This document shows, one piece after another, positions 10,715 to 54,085 of a DNA stretch of 64,000 nucleotides; position 1 is the stretch's first letter; every line of letters starts with the position of its first letter. The DNA is from Deltaproteobacteria bacterium GWA2_45_12. GTDB lineage: Bacteria; UBA10199. The notes under the pieces are model-generated. The model made no database searches. It saw nothing but the letters and a program-made list of their open reading frames with translations, and had not been told where the DNA came from. The stretch covers positions 1,963-65,962 of the forward strand of contig MGPH01000030.1 in NCBI GenBank assembly GCA_001797365.1, given 5' to 3'. The translations under genes were made by a program, and so were the position numbers.

Positions 10715-11521
10715 ATGCCCGATCCCTTAAACAAAGACGGTCTCCATAAACTTACCCGTGACTTGAATTCCTCGGCCAAGAAAAAAGGCGTTGTTCGCGA
10801 ATATGTTGAAGCCCTTCTTGTTGCTGTTTTGCTGGCCTTTGTGATTCGTTCTTTTCTTATTGAACCTTACAAGATCCCTTCCAAGTCGATGGTTCCCACA
10901 CTCTTGGTCGGGGACCATATCTTTGTGAACAAATTGGCCTATGGGTGGAGAATTCCCGGCACCAAAAAATGGCTCACCTATTTTGGAGAGCCCACGCGCG
11001 GGGAGGTGATGGTTTTTATTTACCCCGAGGATGAAAAACTCGATTTTATCAAAAGGGTGGTGGGGCTTCCTGGTGATCATATTCGCATGACGGACAATAA
11101 GCTTTATATAAATGATGTTGAAATCACCAACCAGGATATCGAGGTGGTGGGTATCAATCCACAGGACAAACGGAATCTTCTTTTGCCAGAGGCAAAAGCT
11201 TCAGAACTTCCCAAGGACATAAAAGGCATTCCATTTTTCAGGGGATATTCAAATTATCAAATCAAGCTTGAAGACATGATTGGATCAAAACACCTGATGC
11301 AGCGAAGCAAGCTTTTACCCAATAATGATTCTTTTGACCTTACTGTACCCGCTGACACCTATTTTGTGATGGGGGATAACCGGGACCAGAGTGCGGATAG
11401 CCGGGTTTGGGGTTTTGTACCACGCAAAAACTTGAAGGGCCGGGCGATTTTCATTTGGCTTTCCCTGGATTCTGATTTGGGGGGAGTTCGTTTCAAACGC
11501 TTTGGTAAAAAAATCATTTAG
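10715..11521 (+). CDS. lepB: signal peptidase I
   Basis: 268 aa; S26 catalytic Ser box SMVPTL and the GDNRD box GDNRDQSADSR; conserved lepA-lepB synteny. Confidence 0.9.
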   Translation: MPDPLNKDGLHKLTRDLNSSAKKKGVVREYVEALLVAVLLAFVIRSFLIEPYKIPSKSMVPTLLVGDHIFVNKLAYGWRIPGTKKWLTYFGEPTRGEVMVFIYPEDEKLDFIKRVVGLPGDHIRMTDNKLYINDVEITNQDIEVVGINPQDKRNLLLPEAKASELPKDIKGIPFFRGYSNYQIKLEDMIGSKHLMQRSKLLPNNDSFDLTVPADTYFVMGDNRDQSADSRVWGFVPRKNLKGRAIFIWLSLDSDLGGVRFKRFGKKII

Positions 11522-11528
11522 TAACCAT

Positions 11529-11556
11529 GTAAGGGCAATTCATGAATTGCCCTTAC
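11529..11556. repeat. REP-like 28 bp palindrome (copy)
   Basis: Exact GTAAGGGCAATTCATGAATTGCCCTTAC, 8 nt after the lepB stop. Confidence 0.8.
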
Positions 11557-11771
11557 ATAGCGGACACCCTGAGCCCTGTCGAAGGGTTACACGGGGCTTT
11601 ATTTCCTGTGGGAAAATTTTTCCCCTCTGTCAAAATACATTTGACATTTTCTTCATGATTTTCTCCGAAAATATTCCCTAAGTATTTAAAATTAAATGGG
11701 TAATTTTTAAAAATCATATTGGTATGTGATTTGCACTTTGTTTTGGTGCAAATTTCAAAAAAGGGGGAACT

Positions 11772-13343: not shown

Positions 13344-13380
13344 GGAAGTGGAAGAAATGTTTTCAAAAACCCCTCTCTTA

Positions 13381-13484
13381 TCCCCTACGCTCGTTGGCTT
13401 CGGGGACGCGCCTTGCCGGGTTAAAACCCTCTGCCTTAGGCGGAGAATCTTCCAGGGCTTGCCCTGGGGTTGATACCCTTGATT
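13381..13484 (+). repeat. A-element copy 2
   Basis: Its 5' two-thirds match copy 1. The middle hairpin is replaced by CTCTGCC-TTA-GGCGGAG (stem retained via different bases and one G-U pair), while the CCAGGGC-TT-GCCCTGG hairpin is conserved. Confidence 0.7.
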
Positions 13485-13534
13485 ATCAAGGAGGGGTTGA
13501 TTCATCCCTTTCCCAAATTTTCGGCTTTTTCCTT

Positions 13535-14255: not shown

Positions 14256-14809
14256 AAACTTTTTTTATAGAAAAAGAAACGGCTTATGATGGTACGCAGT
14301 TACACTCCCACTGGGTTTTGAACCAAACCGGGATTTATGGGGATGTTATTGCCGCCTTCATTGGCCCAGCGCGCGTGGATTTGGAGCATATGGTCGATTT
14401 GGAAGATGTTCTTGCCAAAAAGCCAATTTTTTCACACAAAATGCTCCACTTTATCGCCGAGCATTTCGACGATGATCTTGAAAAAATGATTTTACGTCAG
14501 CGTCTTTTTATCTCGTGTCTTCAAACCGATCTTTTGGAATGTTTACCGGAAGAAAAAATTATTCGCCGTGGGGATGACCTTTTTTCAGAATACTTCAAGC
14601 TTACTGTTTCCATTGCAACAAAATCTTCCGTATCTACTCTGATGCACACAGCCATTAATATTGATAGCCACGATACCCCTGTACCAACCAAGGGTTTGGA
14701 TGATTTCAAATTGAATGCCCAAGCAATGGCTCGTTCGGTGATGAATCGGTATGTGGAGGAGTTGGAGGGAGTGGCAAGAGCCAGAGCCAAGGTAAAAGGT
14801 GTGTTTTAA
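14252..14809 (+). CDS. hypothetical protein translationally coupled between queC and queE
   Basis: 185 aa ORF with a TTG start overlapping the queC stop (TTGA); no recognisable motif. Its position inside the que cluster suggests a queuosine-related role. Confidence 0.5.
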   Translation: MKTFFIEKETAYDGTQLHSHWVLNQTGIYGDVIAAFIGPARVDLEHMVDLEDVLAKKPIFSHKMLHFIAEHFDDDLEKMILRQRLFISCLQTDLLECLPEEKIIRRGDDLFSEYFKLTVSIATKSSVSTLMHTAINIDSHDTPVPTKGLDDFKLNAQAMARSVMNRYVEELEGVARARAKVKGVF

Positions 14810-14810
14810 T

Positions 14811-14895
14811 TCCCTCTCCCTGGAGGGGAGAGGGTTAGGGAGAGGGTGATCCCGTGTGCACCCTCCCTCTAACTCCCTCCCCTCAAGGGAGGGAG
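14811..14895 (+). other. three tandem GC-rich hairpins in the 98 bp spacer before queE; the last one sequesters a Shine-Dalgarno-like GGGAGG
   Basis: CCCTCTCCC-TGGA-GGGGAGAGGG; TTAGGGAGAGGGTG-atcccgtgtg-CACCCTCCCTCTAA; CTCCCTCCC-CTCAA-GGGAGGGAG. The last ends 12 nt before the queE ATG. Confidence 0.5.
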
Positions 14896-27775: not shown

Positions 27776-29329
27776 ATGCCTCAAATAAAACGCGCCATTA
27801 TCAGTGTTACAGACAAAACCGGGATTGTTGAATTCGGAAAATTTTTGCAAAGCATGAATGTTGAAATTTTATCCACCGGCGGCACGGCCAAGGTGCTTCG
27901 CGAAGCGGGAGTGAAGGTTGTGGATGTGTCCGAATATACGGGCTCGCCGGAAATTTTAGATGGGCGTTTAAAAACAATCCATCCCAAAATTGAAGGTGGC
28001 TTGTTGGGGATTCGTTCCAATCCAAAACATCTTCAGGAAATGAAGGCTAATGATATCCATCCCATTGATATGGTCATTGTGAATCTTTATGAATTTGAAA
28101 AAACAGTGGCCAAACCAGGCGTGCATTTAGAAGAGGCTATAGAAAACATCGATATCGGAGGCCCCACCATGCTGAGGGCTGCGGCCAAAAACCATCCCGA
28201 TGTGACCGTGGTTGCTGATTTCAACGATTACCCTTGTCTTATAGAAGAGATGAAAAAATCATCTGGAAGCATTTCTTCTGAAACCAATTTTAAATTAGCG
28301 GTGAAAGTTTTTCAAAAAACCGCGCAGTATGATTCAGCCATTTCCAATTATTTGACTCCCAAAATCACCACGGAAGGTTTCCCGGATATTTACCAGATCA
28401 GCCTCGCAAAAGTGCAGGACCTTCGTTATGGAGAAAACCCTCATCAGAAGGCGGCTTTTTATAAAGATGTACAAGCGCCGACGGGAAGTCTGGTGGAAGC
28501 CAAACAAATTCACGGCAAGGAACTTTCGTTCAACAATCTTTTGGATTTGGAAGCGGCCCTCAATTGTGTGCGCGAATTTTCTCTTCCCGCGTGCGTTATC
28601 GTTAAACACACGAACCCTTGCGGGGTGGCTGTGGGTAAGGATTTGGCTGAAAGCTATGTGCGCGCCAAAGAAGCCGATCCTGTTTCGTGCTTTGGCGGGA
28701 TCATCGGGTTAAACCGTGTTGTCGACCCGGCTTGTGCCCAGGCTATTTCAGAAACTTTTTACGAATGCATTATTGCGCCGGGGTTTGAACCTGCTGCCTT
28801 AAAAATCCTCGAAGCAAAAAAGAATATCCGTTTAATGGTTTTGGCCCCCGTAGGGGCGCAATTTATTGCGCCCGTTCTCGACATCAAACGTGTCGGTGGG
28901 GGACTCTTGCTGCAGGACAAAGATTTGGGGAGTGTCGATATTCGCACCGTCAAGGTTGTTTCCCAAAGAAAACCCACAGAACAAGAATATAACGAACTTG
29001 ATTTTGCCTGGAAGGTGGCCAAACACGTCAAATCAAACGCCATCGTTTTTACCAAAGACGGTCAAACTTTGGGAGTGGGGGCTGGCCAAATGAGTCGGGT
29101 CGATTCTGTCAATCTTGCGGTGATGAAGGCTAAAAAATCACTTAAGGGTTCTGTTCTGGCTTCCGATGCCTTTTTCCCTTTTCGTGATGGTTTGGATGCC
29201 GCTGCCAAGCAGGGCATTACGGCGGTTATTCAGCCTGGTGGTTCTGTCAAAGATGAAGAAGTCATCCAAGCCGCCAATGAACATGGCCTGGCGATGATCT
29301 TCACTGGCATGCGGCATTTTAGGCATTGA
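27776..29329 (+). CDS. purH: bifunctional AICAR transformylase / IMP cyclohydrolase
   Basis: [20 protein letters not shown] (MGS-like IMPCH domain) plus a C-terminal AICARFT domain. The ORF-track start at 27737 reads through the upstream hairpin. Confidence 0.93.
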
Positions 29330-30455
29330 TCGGGAATTCTTTAAAGTATTCAAAAGGGCTTATGACGTGGAGTTTGTTTTTTGAGTATGATTTTTTGAGT
29401 TGTCCTACAATTTGTACTGCATTTTTGGGATTTAGTTTTTCAGCATAATATTGAAGTGATTTTGAAACTTCATCATCGCCCCATTTTACTTCAATTAAAT
29501 CTTCCACATTGCCATCTTTAAGAACGACAAAATCAACTTCACGGCCTTCCTTGTCACGAATGTAATTCAATTCCATTTTGTAACCGAACCTGTCCTCAAT
29601 ATAATTAAGTTTTTTAAGCAAGTGGGTGGCGACCAGATTTTCAAAACGAGCTCCTTCATCGCCCATAATGTCGGCATTATCGAAAAAGTAAATTTTGGGG
29701 GGCTTAAGAATGGCCCGTGCCAAATTGTTTGTATAGGGTTTGACTTTAAAAACAACATACATTCGTTCCAAAATATCGACCCAATTTTTGACAGCATTGA
29801 AAGATACATGCAAGTTTTCGGCTATATTGGCAATGACCACAGCAGATCCGACCCTTTTTCTGAGCAAATCAAGAAGCAGGGCAAGGTATTGTATGTCTTT
29901 GATGGGTTCCAGATCACGGACGTCATTGCGCAGAATTTTTTCATAGCGTTCTTTTCTCCATCGTCTGGCTTCAATTTCATTTCCATCCAGAAAAGGTTCG
30001 GGGAATCCACCCACAGTCATGAGTCTTCCAAACACTTCTTTTTTATTTAACTTGGCTGGATGTTCTTCCAAAGAAAATGGATGGAGTCGCCAAGAATGAT
30101 ACCGCCCCATGAGTGAATCGCCCCCGCGCCGATAAGTGTCCAAACGGGCACTCCCCGTGATCAAAAACTGGTGTTTGTCACGGTACTTGTCGAAAATTCC
30201 TTTGAGCCAGTTTTTCCATCGTTTGTATTTGTGAATTTCATCCAGAATGATGAGCTTTTCCTGTTCCAACCATTTAAGGGACAAAATATTGCTCTTATCT
30301 TTATCGAAGTCCCAATTGAAATAAACTCCGTGATCGTGGGCTTGTTCATGAAGAATGGTGTTGGCCAAGTAGGTTTTTCCAACCTGTCTGGGCCCACTTA
30401 GAAAAACCATCTTTTTTTGCAGATCCTTGACGATAAAAGGGGTCAAATAACGCAT
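29319..30455 (-). CDS. AAA-family ATPase (AAA_14/DUF4143 architecture)
   Basis: 378 aa; Walker [12 protein letters not shown]. Confidence 0.7.
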
Positions 30456-31966: not shown

Positions 31967-31992
31967 GGTTCGACTAAGTCCGCCATGCCTGG

Positions 31993-32020
31993 GTAGGGGC
32001 AATTCATGAATTGCCCTTAC
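31993..32020. repeat. REP-like palindrome copy (GTAGGGGCAATTCATGAATTGCCCTTAC)
   Basis: Lies between the divergent or convergent ends of the cca and PpiD-like genes. Confidence 0.75.
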
Positions 32021-32050
32021 AAGATGGGGGAAGCTAGTCGAAAAGGGTAA

Positions 32051-35745: not shown

Positions 35746-35763
35746 TTTTCACCCTCTCCCTCA

Positions 35764-35786
35764 CCCTCCCCCCTCAAGGGGGAGGG
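35764..35786 (+). promoter_or_regulatory. hairpin CCCTCCCCC-CTCAA-GGGGGAGGG sequestering a Shine-Dalgarno-like G-run 10 nt upstream of mrdA
   Basis: Same loop (CTCAA) and stem type as the hairpin at 14873..14895 before queE. Confidence 0.45.
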
Positions 35787-35796
35787 GATATATATT

Positions 35797-41082: not shown

Positions 41083-41140
41083 GTAGGGGCAATTCCCGTA
41101 AGGGCGGCTTGTGTAAGGGCAATTCATGAATTGCCCTTAC
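41083..41140. repeat. REP-like palindrome: partial copy (41083-95) plus a full copy (41113-41140)
   Basis: ttgtaggggcaattcccgtaagggcggcttgtGTAAGGGCAATTCATGAATTGCCCTTAC lies between convergent genes. Confidence 0.75.
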
Positions 41141-41547
41141 GGTTTCCAATGAAAGGTCAAATTTATCTTAATATCCGGATGCAGTGAGTGATGCACCGGG
41201 CAGGTTTTGGCGGCTGCGATGAGTTTTTGCTGTTCTTTTTCAGGGATAAGATGGGGAATTGTGAACGCCACATTCAGCTCATCAATGCGGCGCGGCAGTT
41301 TTTGAGTCATCTTTTTTTCAACCTGAAGCGTCATTCCTTCAAGCGGAATATTATCGCGCTTGGCCACAATCCCCATGATGGTGGCCATGCAGGCCCCTAA
41401 AGAAGTGGCTGCCAGGTCGGTGGGAGAAAACGATCGTCCCTTGCCTTGATTGTCCGGCGGGGCATCCGTTGTGATTTTAACCTTTGAAAGCTCGTGAATG
41501 GCTTCTACTTGAAGGTCGCCAAGATATTTTAGGTGCATGATGCTCAT
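41137..41547 (-). CDS. OsmC/Ohr-family peroxiredoxin-like protein
   Basis: Conserved Cys pair context (SLGACMATIMGIVA; AKTCPV). The start is taken at MSIMHLKYL, because the ORF-track start at 41568 lies in the REP variant. Confidence 0.72.
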   Translation of the reverse strand: MSIMHLKYLGDLQVEAIHELSKVKITTDAPPDNQGKGRSFSPTDLAATSLGACMATIMGIVAKRDNIPLEGMTLQVEKKMTQKLPRRIDELNVAFTIPHLIPEKEQQKLIAAAKTCPVHHSLHPDIKINLTFHWKP

Positions 41548-41554
41548 AAAAGCG

Positions 41555-41582
41555 TAGGGGCAGTTCATGAACTGCCCTTACG
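41555..41582. repeat. REP palindrome variant with a compensatory pair (GTAGGGGCAgTTCATGAAcTGCCCTTAC)
   Basis: T-to-G and A-to-C changes at mirror positions keep the dyad perfect. Confidence 0.7.
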
Positions 41583-41624
41583 ATTTTGATACCATCATTA
41601 TAAAATGCTGACAATTTTTTTATC

Positions 41625-48751: not shown

Positions 48752-50188
48752 TAAATCCGGCGTGAATGGTGTAGGGAATGCCTCCTTTGCTCAACACTGA
48801 CAGGCATTATAGAGTTTTTTGTGGCTAGTATTGAACCTAACTTTTAGTTAGCTTCAATACATGCGTTCTGGGGCTCGAAAAATCCGTACAAAATTCACCG
48901 CGTCTGGCCTCACTCATTTCGGTGGAATTTATCTCTTTCATAAATTTCTCCAGCAACTAAAAATACGATCCTGCTTCTTCCGACACCTGTCTTATTCTCA
49001 GAGAAACAATCAGTATTCTTTGAGCGAAATGATTTTGGCTTTGATTTATCCAATGATTCTTGGTTTGGAAAAAATCGAAGTGTCTTCTCTTCTGAAAACA
49101 AATGGCGTCTTTCATTTTCTGACTGGGCTCCCAACCTTTCCCGATCCTCAAACATTGCGCCGATTTTTGGTGAGGTCATCGACGGAACTGCTGCCGTCAC
49201 TTTGGAAAGTCCACAATGATCTCAAAAAATATTTCATCCTTCAATCTTCTACCCTCTCAAGTTTCTGTTTTGATTTTGATTCCACCGCGAAGACTCTCTA
49301 CGGAAAACAGGAAGGCGTGGTCAAAGGTTACAACCCCGGACATCCAGGAAGAAAATCCTATCACCCGCTGGTCGTCTCAGAAAGTTCTCTCAAGGATTGT
49401 CTGGGTGGATTTTTAAGGCCGGGGAACGCTTACACCTCAGATGGTGTGGTTGATCTTTTTCAACAAGCCCGTTCTATTCTGCCAACTTCCATCCGCTTGC
49501 GCACCCGTGCCGATTCAGGGTTTTATGATGGTTCTTTTGTCCGGACGCTGGACGAAAATCACGTGAAGTTTGCCATTGTTGCCAAGACATCTTCTCCTCT
49601 GAAGAAACTTTTTCTTTCGGCCCGCTATCAAAGAATCAACGACCGATTCTCAACCTCCGAGCTTTTGTATCAACCCGGCAAATGGAAAAAACCTTATCGC
49701 TATGTCGTCTTGAGAAGGATCGTTGATCCGGAAGACGACGGACTCACTCTTTTTACCTTGGACCGATATGCCTACTCGATGATCGTCACCAATCTCGATA
49801 TCACACCCTACGGAGTCTTCGATTTTTATAAAGCTCGAGCCGGGTTGGAAAGGATTATCCGGATTTTGAAAAACGACTTTCCTTTTGCCGGAGCGCCGAC
49901 CAATCATTTTTGTGCGAATGCTCTCTACGCGGAACTTTCTCTTTTGGCGTACAATCTCGTCATGTGGTTCAAGCGACTTTGTCTGCCGGGTGATTGGCAA
50001 TCCTTCACGTTGGAATCACTTCGGCACAAATTATTGCTGATGCCGGGAGAGTTGGTGCATACCGGAAATATTCACACACTCAAATTTCCGAGAAACAGTC
50101 CCAACAAGGATGTCTTTGAATTTGCTCTGAAGAAAATTAAAACGATGGACTCGCTGGTCTGAAAAATGGTGTTTTCACGCCGGATTTA
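48752..50188 (+). mobile_element. IS1380-family insertion sequence (~1.44 kb) with 15 bp perfect TIRs TAAATCCGGCGTGAA and a 9 bp direct repeat GTATCTCCT
   Basis: Left IR 48752-48766; right IR 50174-50188 (reverse complement identical). Direct repeats at 48743-48751 and 50190-50198; on the right a single G (50189) separates the IR from the repeat. Confidence 0.8.
48861..50162 (+). CDS. IS1380-family DDE transposase
   Basis: 433 aa; VKGYNPGHPGRKSYHPLVV matches the GYNP...Y.P hallmark of IS1380/ISEcp1-type transposases. RADSGFYDGSFV carries the second catalytic Asp. Confidence 0.85.
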   Translation: MRSGARKIRTKFTASGLTHFGGIYLFHKFLQQLKIRSCFFRHLSYSQRNNQYSLSEMILALIYPMILGLEKIEVSSLLKTNGVFHFLTGLPTFPDPQTLRRFLVRSSTELLPSLWKVHNDLKKYFILQSSTLSSFCFDFDSTAKTLYGKQEGVVKGYNPGHPGRKSYHPLVVSESSLKDCLGGFLRPGNAYTSDGVVDLFQQARSILPTSIRLRTRADSGFYDGSFVRTLDENHVKFAIVAKTSSPLKKLFLSARYQRINDRFSTSELLYQPGKWKKPYRYVVLRRIVDPEDDGLTLFTLDRYAYSMIVTNLDITPYGVFDFYKARAGLERIIRILKNDFPFAGAPTNHFCANALYAELSLLAYNLVMWFKRLCLPGDWQSFTLESLRHKLLLMPGELVHTGNIHTLKFPRNSPNKDVFEFALKKIKTMDSLV

Positions 50189-53745: not shown

Positions 53746-53755
53746 GTTTTTTTTT

Positions 53756-53783
53756 GTAAGGGTAATTCATGAATTACCCTTAC
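53756..53783. repeat. REP palindrome variant with a compensatory pair (GTAAGGGtAATTCATGAATTaCCCTTAC)
   Basis: C-to-T and G-to-A changes at mirror positions keep the dyad perfect. Confidence 0.7.
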
Positions 53784-53873
53784 CCGGAAATGGTGAGCTA
53801 AGCCTGTGCCTTGAGCTTGGCGAAGATCGAGCCAAGCTTAATATAGAGGGTCTTTGTGTTTTCCCGATGATAT

Positions 53874-54085
53874 CCCCCTTTAAAAAAGGGGGATAAAGGG
53901 GGATTTGGGCCCGCTTTTATCCCCGTTTCTGTATTCCTTTCTCAGTAAATTCTTTCCCAACCTCTTTTTGCATAAGAGATATTTGAATCGGGTACGGGAG
54001 CTGGAACGGGAACAAATCCCCCTGCCCCCCTTTTTTCCCGCATACGGGATCCCGCTACGCGGTGATAAAGGGGGATGATACGGGA
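53874..54085 (-). repeat. B-element (MITE-like, inverted orientation relative to the 61.3 kb copy) with a flanking CCCCCTTTAAAAAAGGGGG hairpin and a degenerate right end
   Basis: GGGGGATTTGGGCCCG (53898-53913) ... CGGGAACAAATCCCCC (..54022). The reverse complement of 53912-54020 aligns with 61275-61380 (ccgttccagctcccgtacccgattcaaatatctcttatgc...ggaaagaatttactgagaaa). Confidence 0.65.

Follow-up and report, generated by a model that had tools for sequence, protein, structure and literature searches.

A sequence with several stacked hairpins, here called the A-element, occurs in three intergenic copies in a 64-kb window (the whole stretch of 64,000 nt that was analysed) of a deep-branching 'Deltaproteobacteria bacterium' MAG. 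The question raised by this locus is whether the sequence represents a structured RNA module or a mobile repeat, both of which had been considered plausible in the earlier note. The suggestion of a 'REP-like mobile repeat' turned out to be essentially right, with ends homologous to IS200 and copies that are dispersed and non-syntenic, while the RNA part found no support (no Rfam match, random gene orientation, no synteny). Thus, the A-element most probably derives from an IS200-group insertion sequence (IS200/IS605 family) and is a non-autonomous, MITE-like element without a protein of its own, a palindrome-associated transposable element (PATE). Judged from its sequence, it is best described as the left end of such an IS fused to the right end, with tnpA deleted, and as ordinary selfish DNA which is no regulatory RNA. 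No new kind of biology is opened by this assignment. It spares three intergenic 'structured RNA' candidates a mis-annotation, one of them immediately 5' of queC, a place where one could expect a preQ1 riboswitch, and it provides a covariance model and boundary rules that can be used to mask a repeat family of many uncultured lineages. It also documents a family of miniature IS200 derivatives that is very widespread, from Patescibacteria to Bacteroidota, with a phage copy, an unusual closed junction and tandem arrays, and that constitutes a convenient natural data set for end recognition and target choice by Y1 transposases.

The three copies in the window

All three copies are located on the + strand, at about 867–972, 13382–13484 and 20144–20262, in agreement within about 1–7 nt with the positions reported earlier (866–972, 13381–13484 and 20137–20262); the exact boundaries of the units, 103–119 nt in length, are uncertain by 1–3 nt. 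The invariant 20-mer TCCAGGGCTTGCCCTGGGGT occurs three times in the window versus 0.00 expected (100 shuffles). A covariance model built on the core of the A-element (R1), run without filters over the 64 kb, gave exactly three hits, all on the + strand (83.9, 83.5 and 56.0 bits), with reverse-strand scores of 29.5 bits or less and no fourth copy in the window. Copies 1 and 3 are 97% identical across 69 nt, copies 1 and 2 92% across 60 nt. The ORFs that cross the units are only read-through extensions of neighbouring genes, and the units have no protein-coding capacity of their own. The gene context described previously could be confirmed: copy 1 is found 5' of the M16 peptidase gene, copy 2 in the gap between the lipoprotein gene (a 523-aa ORF) and queC, and copy 3 about 20 nt upstream of the DUF559 gene, and in the window all three are co-oriented with the downstream genes.

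Copy 1 (867–972, boundaries about ±3 nt; R1 hit 890–977, 83.5 bits), as a whole unit a putative PATE, directly follows the pentamer TTTAT (862–866, + strand, as all features below), read as the target or transposon-adjacent motif (TAM). The related IS of P0192, described below, also starts after TTTATT, and the 5' flanks in Sphaerochaeta read T-N-A-T-T. The 5' hairpin module TCCCC..GGGGA (866–891) is a lineage-specific insert in the left end and resembles a degenerate end hairpin; the module of copy 2, identical to that of copy 1, gives a weak local alignment (score 16) with the right-end hairpin of the P0192 IS. The left-end core, GGGT-CAAAA-CCCCG plus hairpin 1 (903–929), matches the left ends of the P0192 IS and of four other IS, and hairpin 1 itself, CCGTGGCTTGCCACGG (914–929), corresponds to the left subterminal palindrome IP_L. 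The right-end core (940–972), which aligns with IS right ends of the form hairpin-GGGGT-AGTTCATT, begins with hairpin 2, CCAGGGCTTGCCCTGG (940–955, IP_R), followed by GGTTCAT, by the ACC that provides the 3' strand of the closing stem P1 (963–965; P1 covaries across relatives), and by the terminal TTGATT (967–972), the putative transposon-encoded motif (TEM). The hairpins CCGTGGC-TT-GCCACGG and CCAGGGC-TT-GCCCTGG are present as the earlier note had stated.

In copy 2 (13382–13484; R1 hit 13405–13489, 56 bits; 5' flank CTTAT at 13377–13381), hairpin 1 is indeed exchanged for CTCTGCC-TTA-GGCGGAG with one T·G pair (13429–13445), followed by hairpin 2 (13452–13467) and TTGATT (13479–13484). A strain variant (L125, Logan SRR6482819) has C in place of T at window position 13432, such that hairpin 1 reads CTCCGCC, the T·G wobble becomes a C-G pair and the stem is perfect. 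Copy 3 (20144–20262; R1 hit 20181–20267, 83.9 bits; 5' flank TTTAT at 20139–20143) has the distinct 5' module of two perfect hairpins that had been noticed before (20152–20173 and 20174–20191), hairpin 1 at 20204–20219, hairpin 2 at 20230–20245 and the terminal TTGATT at 20257–20262. The flanks and tips of the three copies, i.e. TTTAT, CTTAT and TTTAT on the 5' side and TTGAT(T) at the 3' tip, are read as TAM and TEM (boundaries ±1–3 nt). Terminal inverted repeats are absent, the 5' and 3' ends not being reverse complements of each other, and so is a target-site duplication.

Homology to the ends of IS200-group elements

Autonomous relatives were retrieved in a second sample, for which metagenomes were queried with the conserved strands of a 5' module only (AACGAAGYGAG..YCCGAGCGAG; 138 sites); the ORFs of the fetched loci were screened with an IS608 TnpA query. 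One match was obtained (L172:8250–8693), a Y1_Tnp according to Pfam (PF01797, E=1.9e-33). The flanks of this tnpA gene, ..TTTAATCTCTCTTAGGGTATAATTCCCCGCGGCTTGCCGCGGA.. upstream and ..TAATACCTCGCGGCTTGCCGCGAGGATTATTTATT downstream, share their junction motifs and CUUG hairpins with the A-element, and the best two R1 hits in the 12.5-kb L172 locus are exactly these two IS ends, on the tnpA strand. The IS ends of the loci L261, L262 and L264 were matched by R1 as well, the hits at IS ends being weak (17–20 bits). Homologous TnpA proteins number about 8000 (148 aa), and related tnpA genes were found at several insertion sites, each with a left and a right end. The left end starts directly after TTNAAT or TTTATT and continues ..CTCTTTTAGGGT-AATATT-CCCCG-hairpin, with the ATG about 30 nt further on; the right end consists of the stop codon and GATA-CCCCG-hairpin-GGGGTAGTTCATT, directly followed by the flank, with tips of the form ..TTCATT. 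In short, the autonomous IS end in ..GGGT-nnAAT-(A/T)CCCCG-hairpin on the left and in hairpin-GGGGT..TTCATT on the right.

The P0192 IS, which starts directly after TTTATT, was found in both metagenome samples that contain the window contig (ANAN16-1 SAMN03202995, JGI 3300025308). Its left end CTGGGTTTAATACCCCGTGGCTCTGCCACGGAA and the corresponding stretch of copy 1, CTGGGTCAAAACCCCGTGGCTTGCCACGGAA, are identical in 29 of 33 aligned columns (two are gaps). For copy 3 the alignment spans 27 columns, interrupted by a single mismatch and a single gap, and the left-end hairpin of the P0192 IS differs very little from hairpin 1 of copies 1 and 3. The G+C content of the P0192 contigs is lower (0.37–0.41 versus 0.45 in the window), and therefore this IS may belong to another organism. 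A P0192 IS copy with a different left end (L277, about 330–400) has the perfect hairpin GTAGGGAC..GTCCCTAC upstream of GGGT; hence, 5' hairpin modules occur on autonomous copies, too.

Taken over its length, the left-end half of the A-element aligns with IS left ends and the right-end half with IS right ends, and both end hairpins are homologous to those of the tnpA-encoding IS, on the same strand. Since the hairpins and the junction motifs are homologous to the ends of a tnpA-carrying IS200, the A-element is taken to be the left end plus the right end without tnpA, with hairpin 1 as the left subterminal palindrome and hairpin 2 as the right one. No tnpA was found in the 64-kb window, and among the IS copies retrieved none had the exact hairpin 2 (CCAGGGCTTGCCCTGG) or the P1-forming 3' extension ACC..TTGATT. 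What the retrieved autonomous IS lack is this 3' extension (general form ACC..T-N-A-T-T), in which ACC is the partner of the left-end ..GGGT in P1, and the lineage-specific 5' modules.

PATEs are known from Haloquadratum and from the Geobacillus ISGst (PMC3119063; PMC10055086), and PATE-like elements share IS ends, have similar TAM and TEM pentamers and tolerate changes in spacing (PMC10055086). Like them, the A-element is short and ORF-less, carries the left and right subterminal hairpins of its parent IS on one strand, has neither terminal inverted repeats nor a target duplication, sits 3' of a specific pentamer, exists in multiple copies and would be mobilised in trans. It differs from the known PATEs in its parent, the tnpA-only IS200 group with CUUG-loop hairpins, and in a long-range covarying stem, formed by GGGT and ACC, which gathers the hairpins into a three- or four-way junction. 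Further differences are the extended right end with two pentamer motifs, the lineage-variable 5' hairpin modules and one hairpin that is almost unchanged across many phyla. The PATE is a kind of element already described for the IS200/IS605 family, to which the A-element adds a widespread, neatly folded member. With the IS200 group itself (IS200, IS608 and ISDra2 as models) it has in common the hairpins and junction motifs, homologous to copies that encode the 148-aa Y1_Tnp, the geometry (a right tip about 9 nt beyond its hairpin, and about 20 nt between the left tip and its hairpin) and a target of the T-N-A-T type, cf. TTGAT of ISDra2. Unlike members of this group, the window copies have no transposase gene, and more sequence separates each of their tips from the hairpin: about 47 nt (left) and 17 nt (right), as against about 20 and 9 nt in the autonomous IS.

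Distribution, flanks and empty sites

A scan of 185,579 species genomes with an 18-mer of hairpin 2 returned 120 loci, about half of which represent a coincidental 16S rRNA helix of Solirubrobacterales, while about 55 are the A-element in other lineages. The hosts are Patescibacteria (Moranbacteria, Parcubacteria, Paceibacterota, Saccharibacteria), Bacteroidota, Sphaerochaeta (Spirochaetota; many copies per genome), Oscillospiraceae, Roseburia and Eubacteriales (Bacillota), Desulfobacterota including Smithella, Bacteriovoracaceae (Bdellovibrionota) and Omnitrophota. The core of the A-element is present in at least eight phyla and on one phage contig, where it lies between a small ORF and the capsid gene, antisense to both. 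Two or three copies are clustered within 1.3–4 kb at six loci. Flanking genes shared between any two foreign loci were not found, and the genes 3' of foreign copies are unrelated to each other (TRAP transporter, SulP, GAPDH, pyruvate kinase, GS-III, AbiEi). Distant-mode blastn with copy 1 gave only three short insignificant matches (E 0.3–1) against plasmids and no match against phages. On one Patescibacteria contig (L115, 4679–4929), a group I intron (Rfam RF00028, 72 bits) is situated 4.4 kb from a copy; it appears to be unrelated.

The 11 near-identical copies in Sphaerochaeta always have the 3' tip ..TTTCATT, i.e. the constant end TCATT, and a variable 5' flank (TTATT, TCATT, TGATT, CTATT) which always conforms to T-N-A-T-T. 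As the flank varies while the 3' end stays constant, there is no target duplication in these copies. For the window organism, the nearest available relative (L137) has 59% QueC identity; the order 496-aa protein, queC, DUF366, queE is kept, and the spacer between the lipoprotein gene and queC measures 80 nt and lacks the element, the sequences being too diverged for a precise joint. R1 gave no match over 36 kb of DNA from relatives. Hence, the copies are dispersed, non-syntenic and missing at one orthologous site. Among the same-species contigs, on the other hand, all carry the copies, and a true empty site within the species was not found. Two candidates were discarded: the apparent empty site in L122 is an assembly gap (NN), and the contig L132, devoid of copy 3 and the DUF559 cassette, reflects a rearrangement at another repeat family. 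In the comparison of L132 (6377–6556) with L131 (6377–7060; window about 20060–20745), the breakpoint falls within the repeat CCCCCTTTAAAAAAGGGGG, and the difference is either a strain-level rearrangement or a mis-join. In the assembly GCA_003501025.1, methylmalonyl-CoA mutase follows the patatin gene, in the place of the DUF559 gene and copy 3.

Fold and covariation

The shared architecture starts with the closing stem P1 (..GGGT with ACC..), the junction nnAAT(A/T), CCCCG and hairpin 1, which has a variable stem and a CUUG loop. It continues with CGGAA, optional extra hairpins and GGGT, followed by hairpin 2 (CCAGGG-CUUG-CCCUGG), GGGGT, nnnAT, ACC.. and the tail T-N-A-T-T. In 32 diverse sequences, 88.7% of the pairing cells are paired versus 78.6% in shuffled data, and none of 500 shuffles reached the observed value; when the 3' partner was displaced by 1–3 columns as a control, 41–62% were paired. 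Nine pairs are changed on both sides, five of six in hairpin 1 and four of five in P1. Hairpin 2, highly conserved across phyla, is invariant in this set as a result of the search pattern itself, which had fixed it; in the sample drawn via the 5' module only, compensated variants of hairpin 2 were encountered, e.g. GGGGCTTGCCCC and CAGAGCTTGCTCTG. A pairing of the 3' tail with the junction (GGUnAA with UUnAUU) was not adopted, being confined to some lineages and inconsistent in its covariation.

The structure-preserving variation pointed out in the earlier note is therefore real, as far as covariation is concerned; it is not diagnostic of RNA, as it is also expected of DNA hairpins recognised by a transposase. 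On the + strand, G·T wobbles outnumber A·C wobbles by 46 to 23 overall and by 23 to 6 in hairpin 1. The argument that the G-U pair in copy 2 is a pairing 'only in RNA' fails, because G·T wobbles are compatible with hairpins of single-stranded DNA as well. Copies 1 and 2 do not fold more stably than shuffled sequences (z = -0.87 and -1.73 for RNA folding and about 0 for DNA).

Proposed mobilisation, arrays and the closed junction

By analogy with IS608 and ISDra2, a Y1 (HUH) transposase encoded elsewhere would bind both top-strand hairpins while the replication fork exposes this strand in single-stranded form. It would then make two cuts, one behind the 5'-adjacent pentamer and the other behind the terminal pentamer that belongs to the A-element itself, whereupon the top strand could be excised as a single-stranded circle and pasted 3' of another pentamer of the T-N-A-T type ('peel and paste'). 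Transposition as a single strand would account for stems that covary while the CUUG loops remain constant, and for the about fourfold excess of G·T over A·C in hairpin 1 on the + strand. For IS200/IS605, an orientation on the lagging-strand template and a guide sequence 5' of the hairpin foot have been described (PMC5027513). The + strand of the window is G-rich (GC skew about +0.07 across most of the window), and all three copies reside on it (n=3). This placement is consistent with a preference for the lagging-strand template: given the replication-linked orientation bias of IS200/IS605, the three copies would all be on the G-rich strand as the lagging-strand template, and transcription would not be needed to explain their shared + orientation. 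A DNA guide pairing with the target and terminal pentamers, for which the TTAC/AAAG rule of IS608 was tried, gave no convincing assignment.

Head-to-tail arrays are a further feature of the family. If a unit were inserted after the terminal pentamer of an earlier one, a junction of ..TTTCATT with the next unit would be expected, and the arrays have ..TTTCATT directly joined to CGCAAACG. They comprise 2–4 units with a period of 89–92 nt (L173 5440–5790; L202 2270–2600; L156, L165, L233, L241 and L257), the junctions in these loci being ..TTTCAT(T) followed by (G/C)NCAAACG. Each array unit joins a 5' module, 'D1', to a reduced 3' hairpin; the full junction is often found on the last unit. The D1 module, with the conserved strands AACGAAGYGAG and YCCGAGCGAG, occurs in tandem arrays, and its 3' part is sometimes a bare hairpin only; the sequences do not appear to fit kink-turn, sarcin-ricin or hammerhead motifs. 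About 60 nt 3' of a D1 match in L148 (read on the minus strand), the sequence continues ..GGGTAGTTTGACTGGGGCGGTCTCC.., which looks like 23S rRNA, and a D1-type element may have been inserted in an rRNA gene. In the sample drawn with the 5' module, what P1 encloses varies widely: at one extreme it is just a bare loop (GGT-TTAAT-ACC), at the other the complete junction with two or three hairpins. This range could be due to insertion of IS ends into, or their excision from, a hairpin loop with a target-like pentamer, or it could be due to deletion between AATACC direct repeats. As P1 covaries, forcing the two hairpins into a compact junction, and hairpin 2 is near-invariant in at least eight phyla, the A-element may amount to more than IS ends in decay, and the junction itself could be a selected unit. 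One may envisage it as a pre-synapsed single-stranded DNA substrate or as a transcribed RNA with a function for the host or the element, and the D1 module as an undescribed mobile or RNA element which hosts insertions of IS200 ends in its hairpin loop; such a proposal is regarded as rather unlikely.

Host repeats, structured RNA and omega-RNA

REPs are single palindromes of 20–40 nt with a GTAG head, arranged as inverted pairs, species-specific and linked to one domesticated RAYT gene. The A-element might then be a REP/BIME-type repeat kept by the host through a domesticated single-copy RAYT transposase, and no derivative of a true IS. Both are intergenic hairpin repeats related to IS200/IS605 ends, some of the TnpA homologues bear the JGI name 'REP element-mobilizing transposase RayT', and other REP-like palindromes exist in the window. 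REPs, too, resemble the end hairpins of IS200/IS605 and are moved and processed by Y1 HUH enzymes (PMC3333891). What makes this origin improbable is that the related tnpA genes occupy several insertion sites with left and right ends of their own, as in true IS. Moreover, the A-element combines junction motifs with two directly oriented hairpins on a single strand, and it extends over at least eight phyla and a phage, in contrast to species-specific REPs.

A slightly smaller probability still is assigned to a structured RNA acting in cis or trans, be it a 5'-UTR regulator, a riboswitch-like element or an sRNA gene, for which the three-way junction would be the functional fold. The genuine covariation in the closing stem and hairpin 1, the wobbles of the G·U type that favour the + strand, the co-orientation of all window copies with downstream genes and the conservation of hairpin 2 across phyla would all suit such an RNA. 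Yet the Rfam scan proposed in the earlier note (Rfam 15, gathering thresholds and E<=10) gave no meaningful match for the window copies or for full-length foreign copies. The transcribed orientation likewise does not extend to a general rule: in 58 relatives from other genomes, 21 downstream genes are co-oriented and 24 opposite, as are 21 and 27 of the upstream genes, and random orientation relative to transcription is what the note itself had named as speaking against its RNA module. The mutually unrelated downstream genes, the lack of synteny, the absence of the element from the orthologous queC leader of the relative, the homology of the hairpins to IS200 ends and the unremarkable folding energies of copies 1 and 2 all argue in the same direction. 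A riboswitch or other 5'-UTR function in particular was rejected in view of the diverse downstream genes and their random orientation.

Least probable of all is a double role, in which the PATE would in addition be the source of a guide-type omega-RNA for a TnpB or IscB nuclease encoded elsewhere, with the junction as scaffold and the 3' flank as guide. PATEs 'often encode omega RNAs' (PMC10055086), the pentamers TTGAT, TTCAT and TTTAT look like TnpB TAMs, the long-range closing stem is just upstream of the 3' end, and TnpB omega-RNAs and the Rfam IS605-orfB motifs, too, are structured sequences located at the right ends of IS605-family elements. Yet the parent elements are of the IS200 type with tnpA only, the ISDra2 omega-RNA architecture (pseudoknot, stems 1–4) does not map onto the A-element fold, and the TnpB-associated Rfam families were not matched. 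No tnpB or iscB was detected next to any of about 200 copies or in 1.7 Mb of fetched loci, and no TnpB among the ORFs upstream of copies or in about 5800 ORFs (phmmer with an ISDra2 TnpB query); these are weak negatives.

Other repeats and mobile genes near the putative PATE copies

A second repeat family in the window is the perfect 28–30-nt palindrome GTAAGGGCAATTCATGAATTGCCCTTAC, present in seven copies (2436–2473, 11521–11558, 26216–26253, 31985–32022, 41105–41142, 41546–41583 and 53748–53785), of which at least the first two abut the 3' ends of ORFs; its appearance suggests either a REP-type element or a bidirectional terminator. A third family, ATCCCCCTTTAAAAAAGGGGGAT-n-GGGGGATTTG, is found in both orientations (20067–20114, 20661–20705, 24400–24444, 53861–53908, 58008–58052, 61237–61284 and 61372–61416), and one inverted pair (20077–20113 and 20670–20706) brackets copy 3 and the DUF559 gene in a cassette-like manner. 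Long inverted repeats of 91 and 67 nt, 93–96% complementary, connect 53871–54036 with 61260–61417 and enclose about 7.2 kb, so that the segment 53871–61417 may be composite or invertible. Another inverted pair of 41 nt (14809–14849 and 35749–35789; 88% complementary) is rich in CCCTCTCCC/GGGAGAGGG. An IS4-like DDE transposase gene (48861–50162; DDE_Tnp_1_4, E=2e-53) belongs to a classical IS unrelated to the A-element. Finally, genes of AAA_14/DUF4143 ATPases recur near the copies or near queC of relatives (window 29319–30455; L072; L137 7294–8358; L140 13606–14826), which is probably coincidental mobile or defence-island content.
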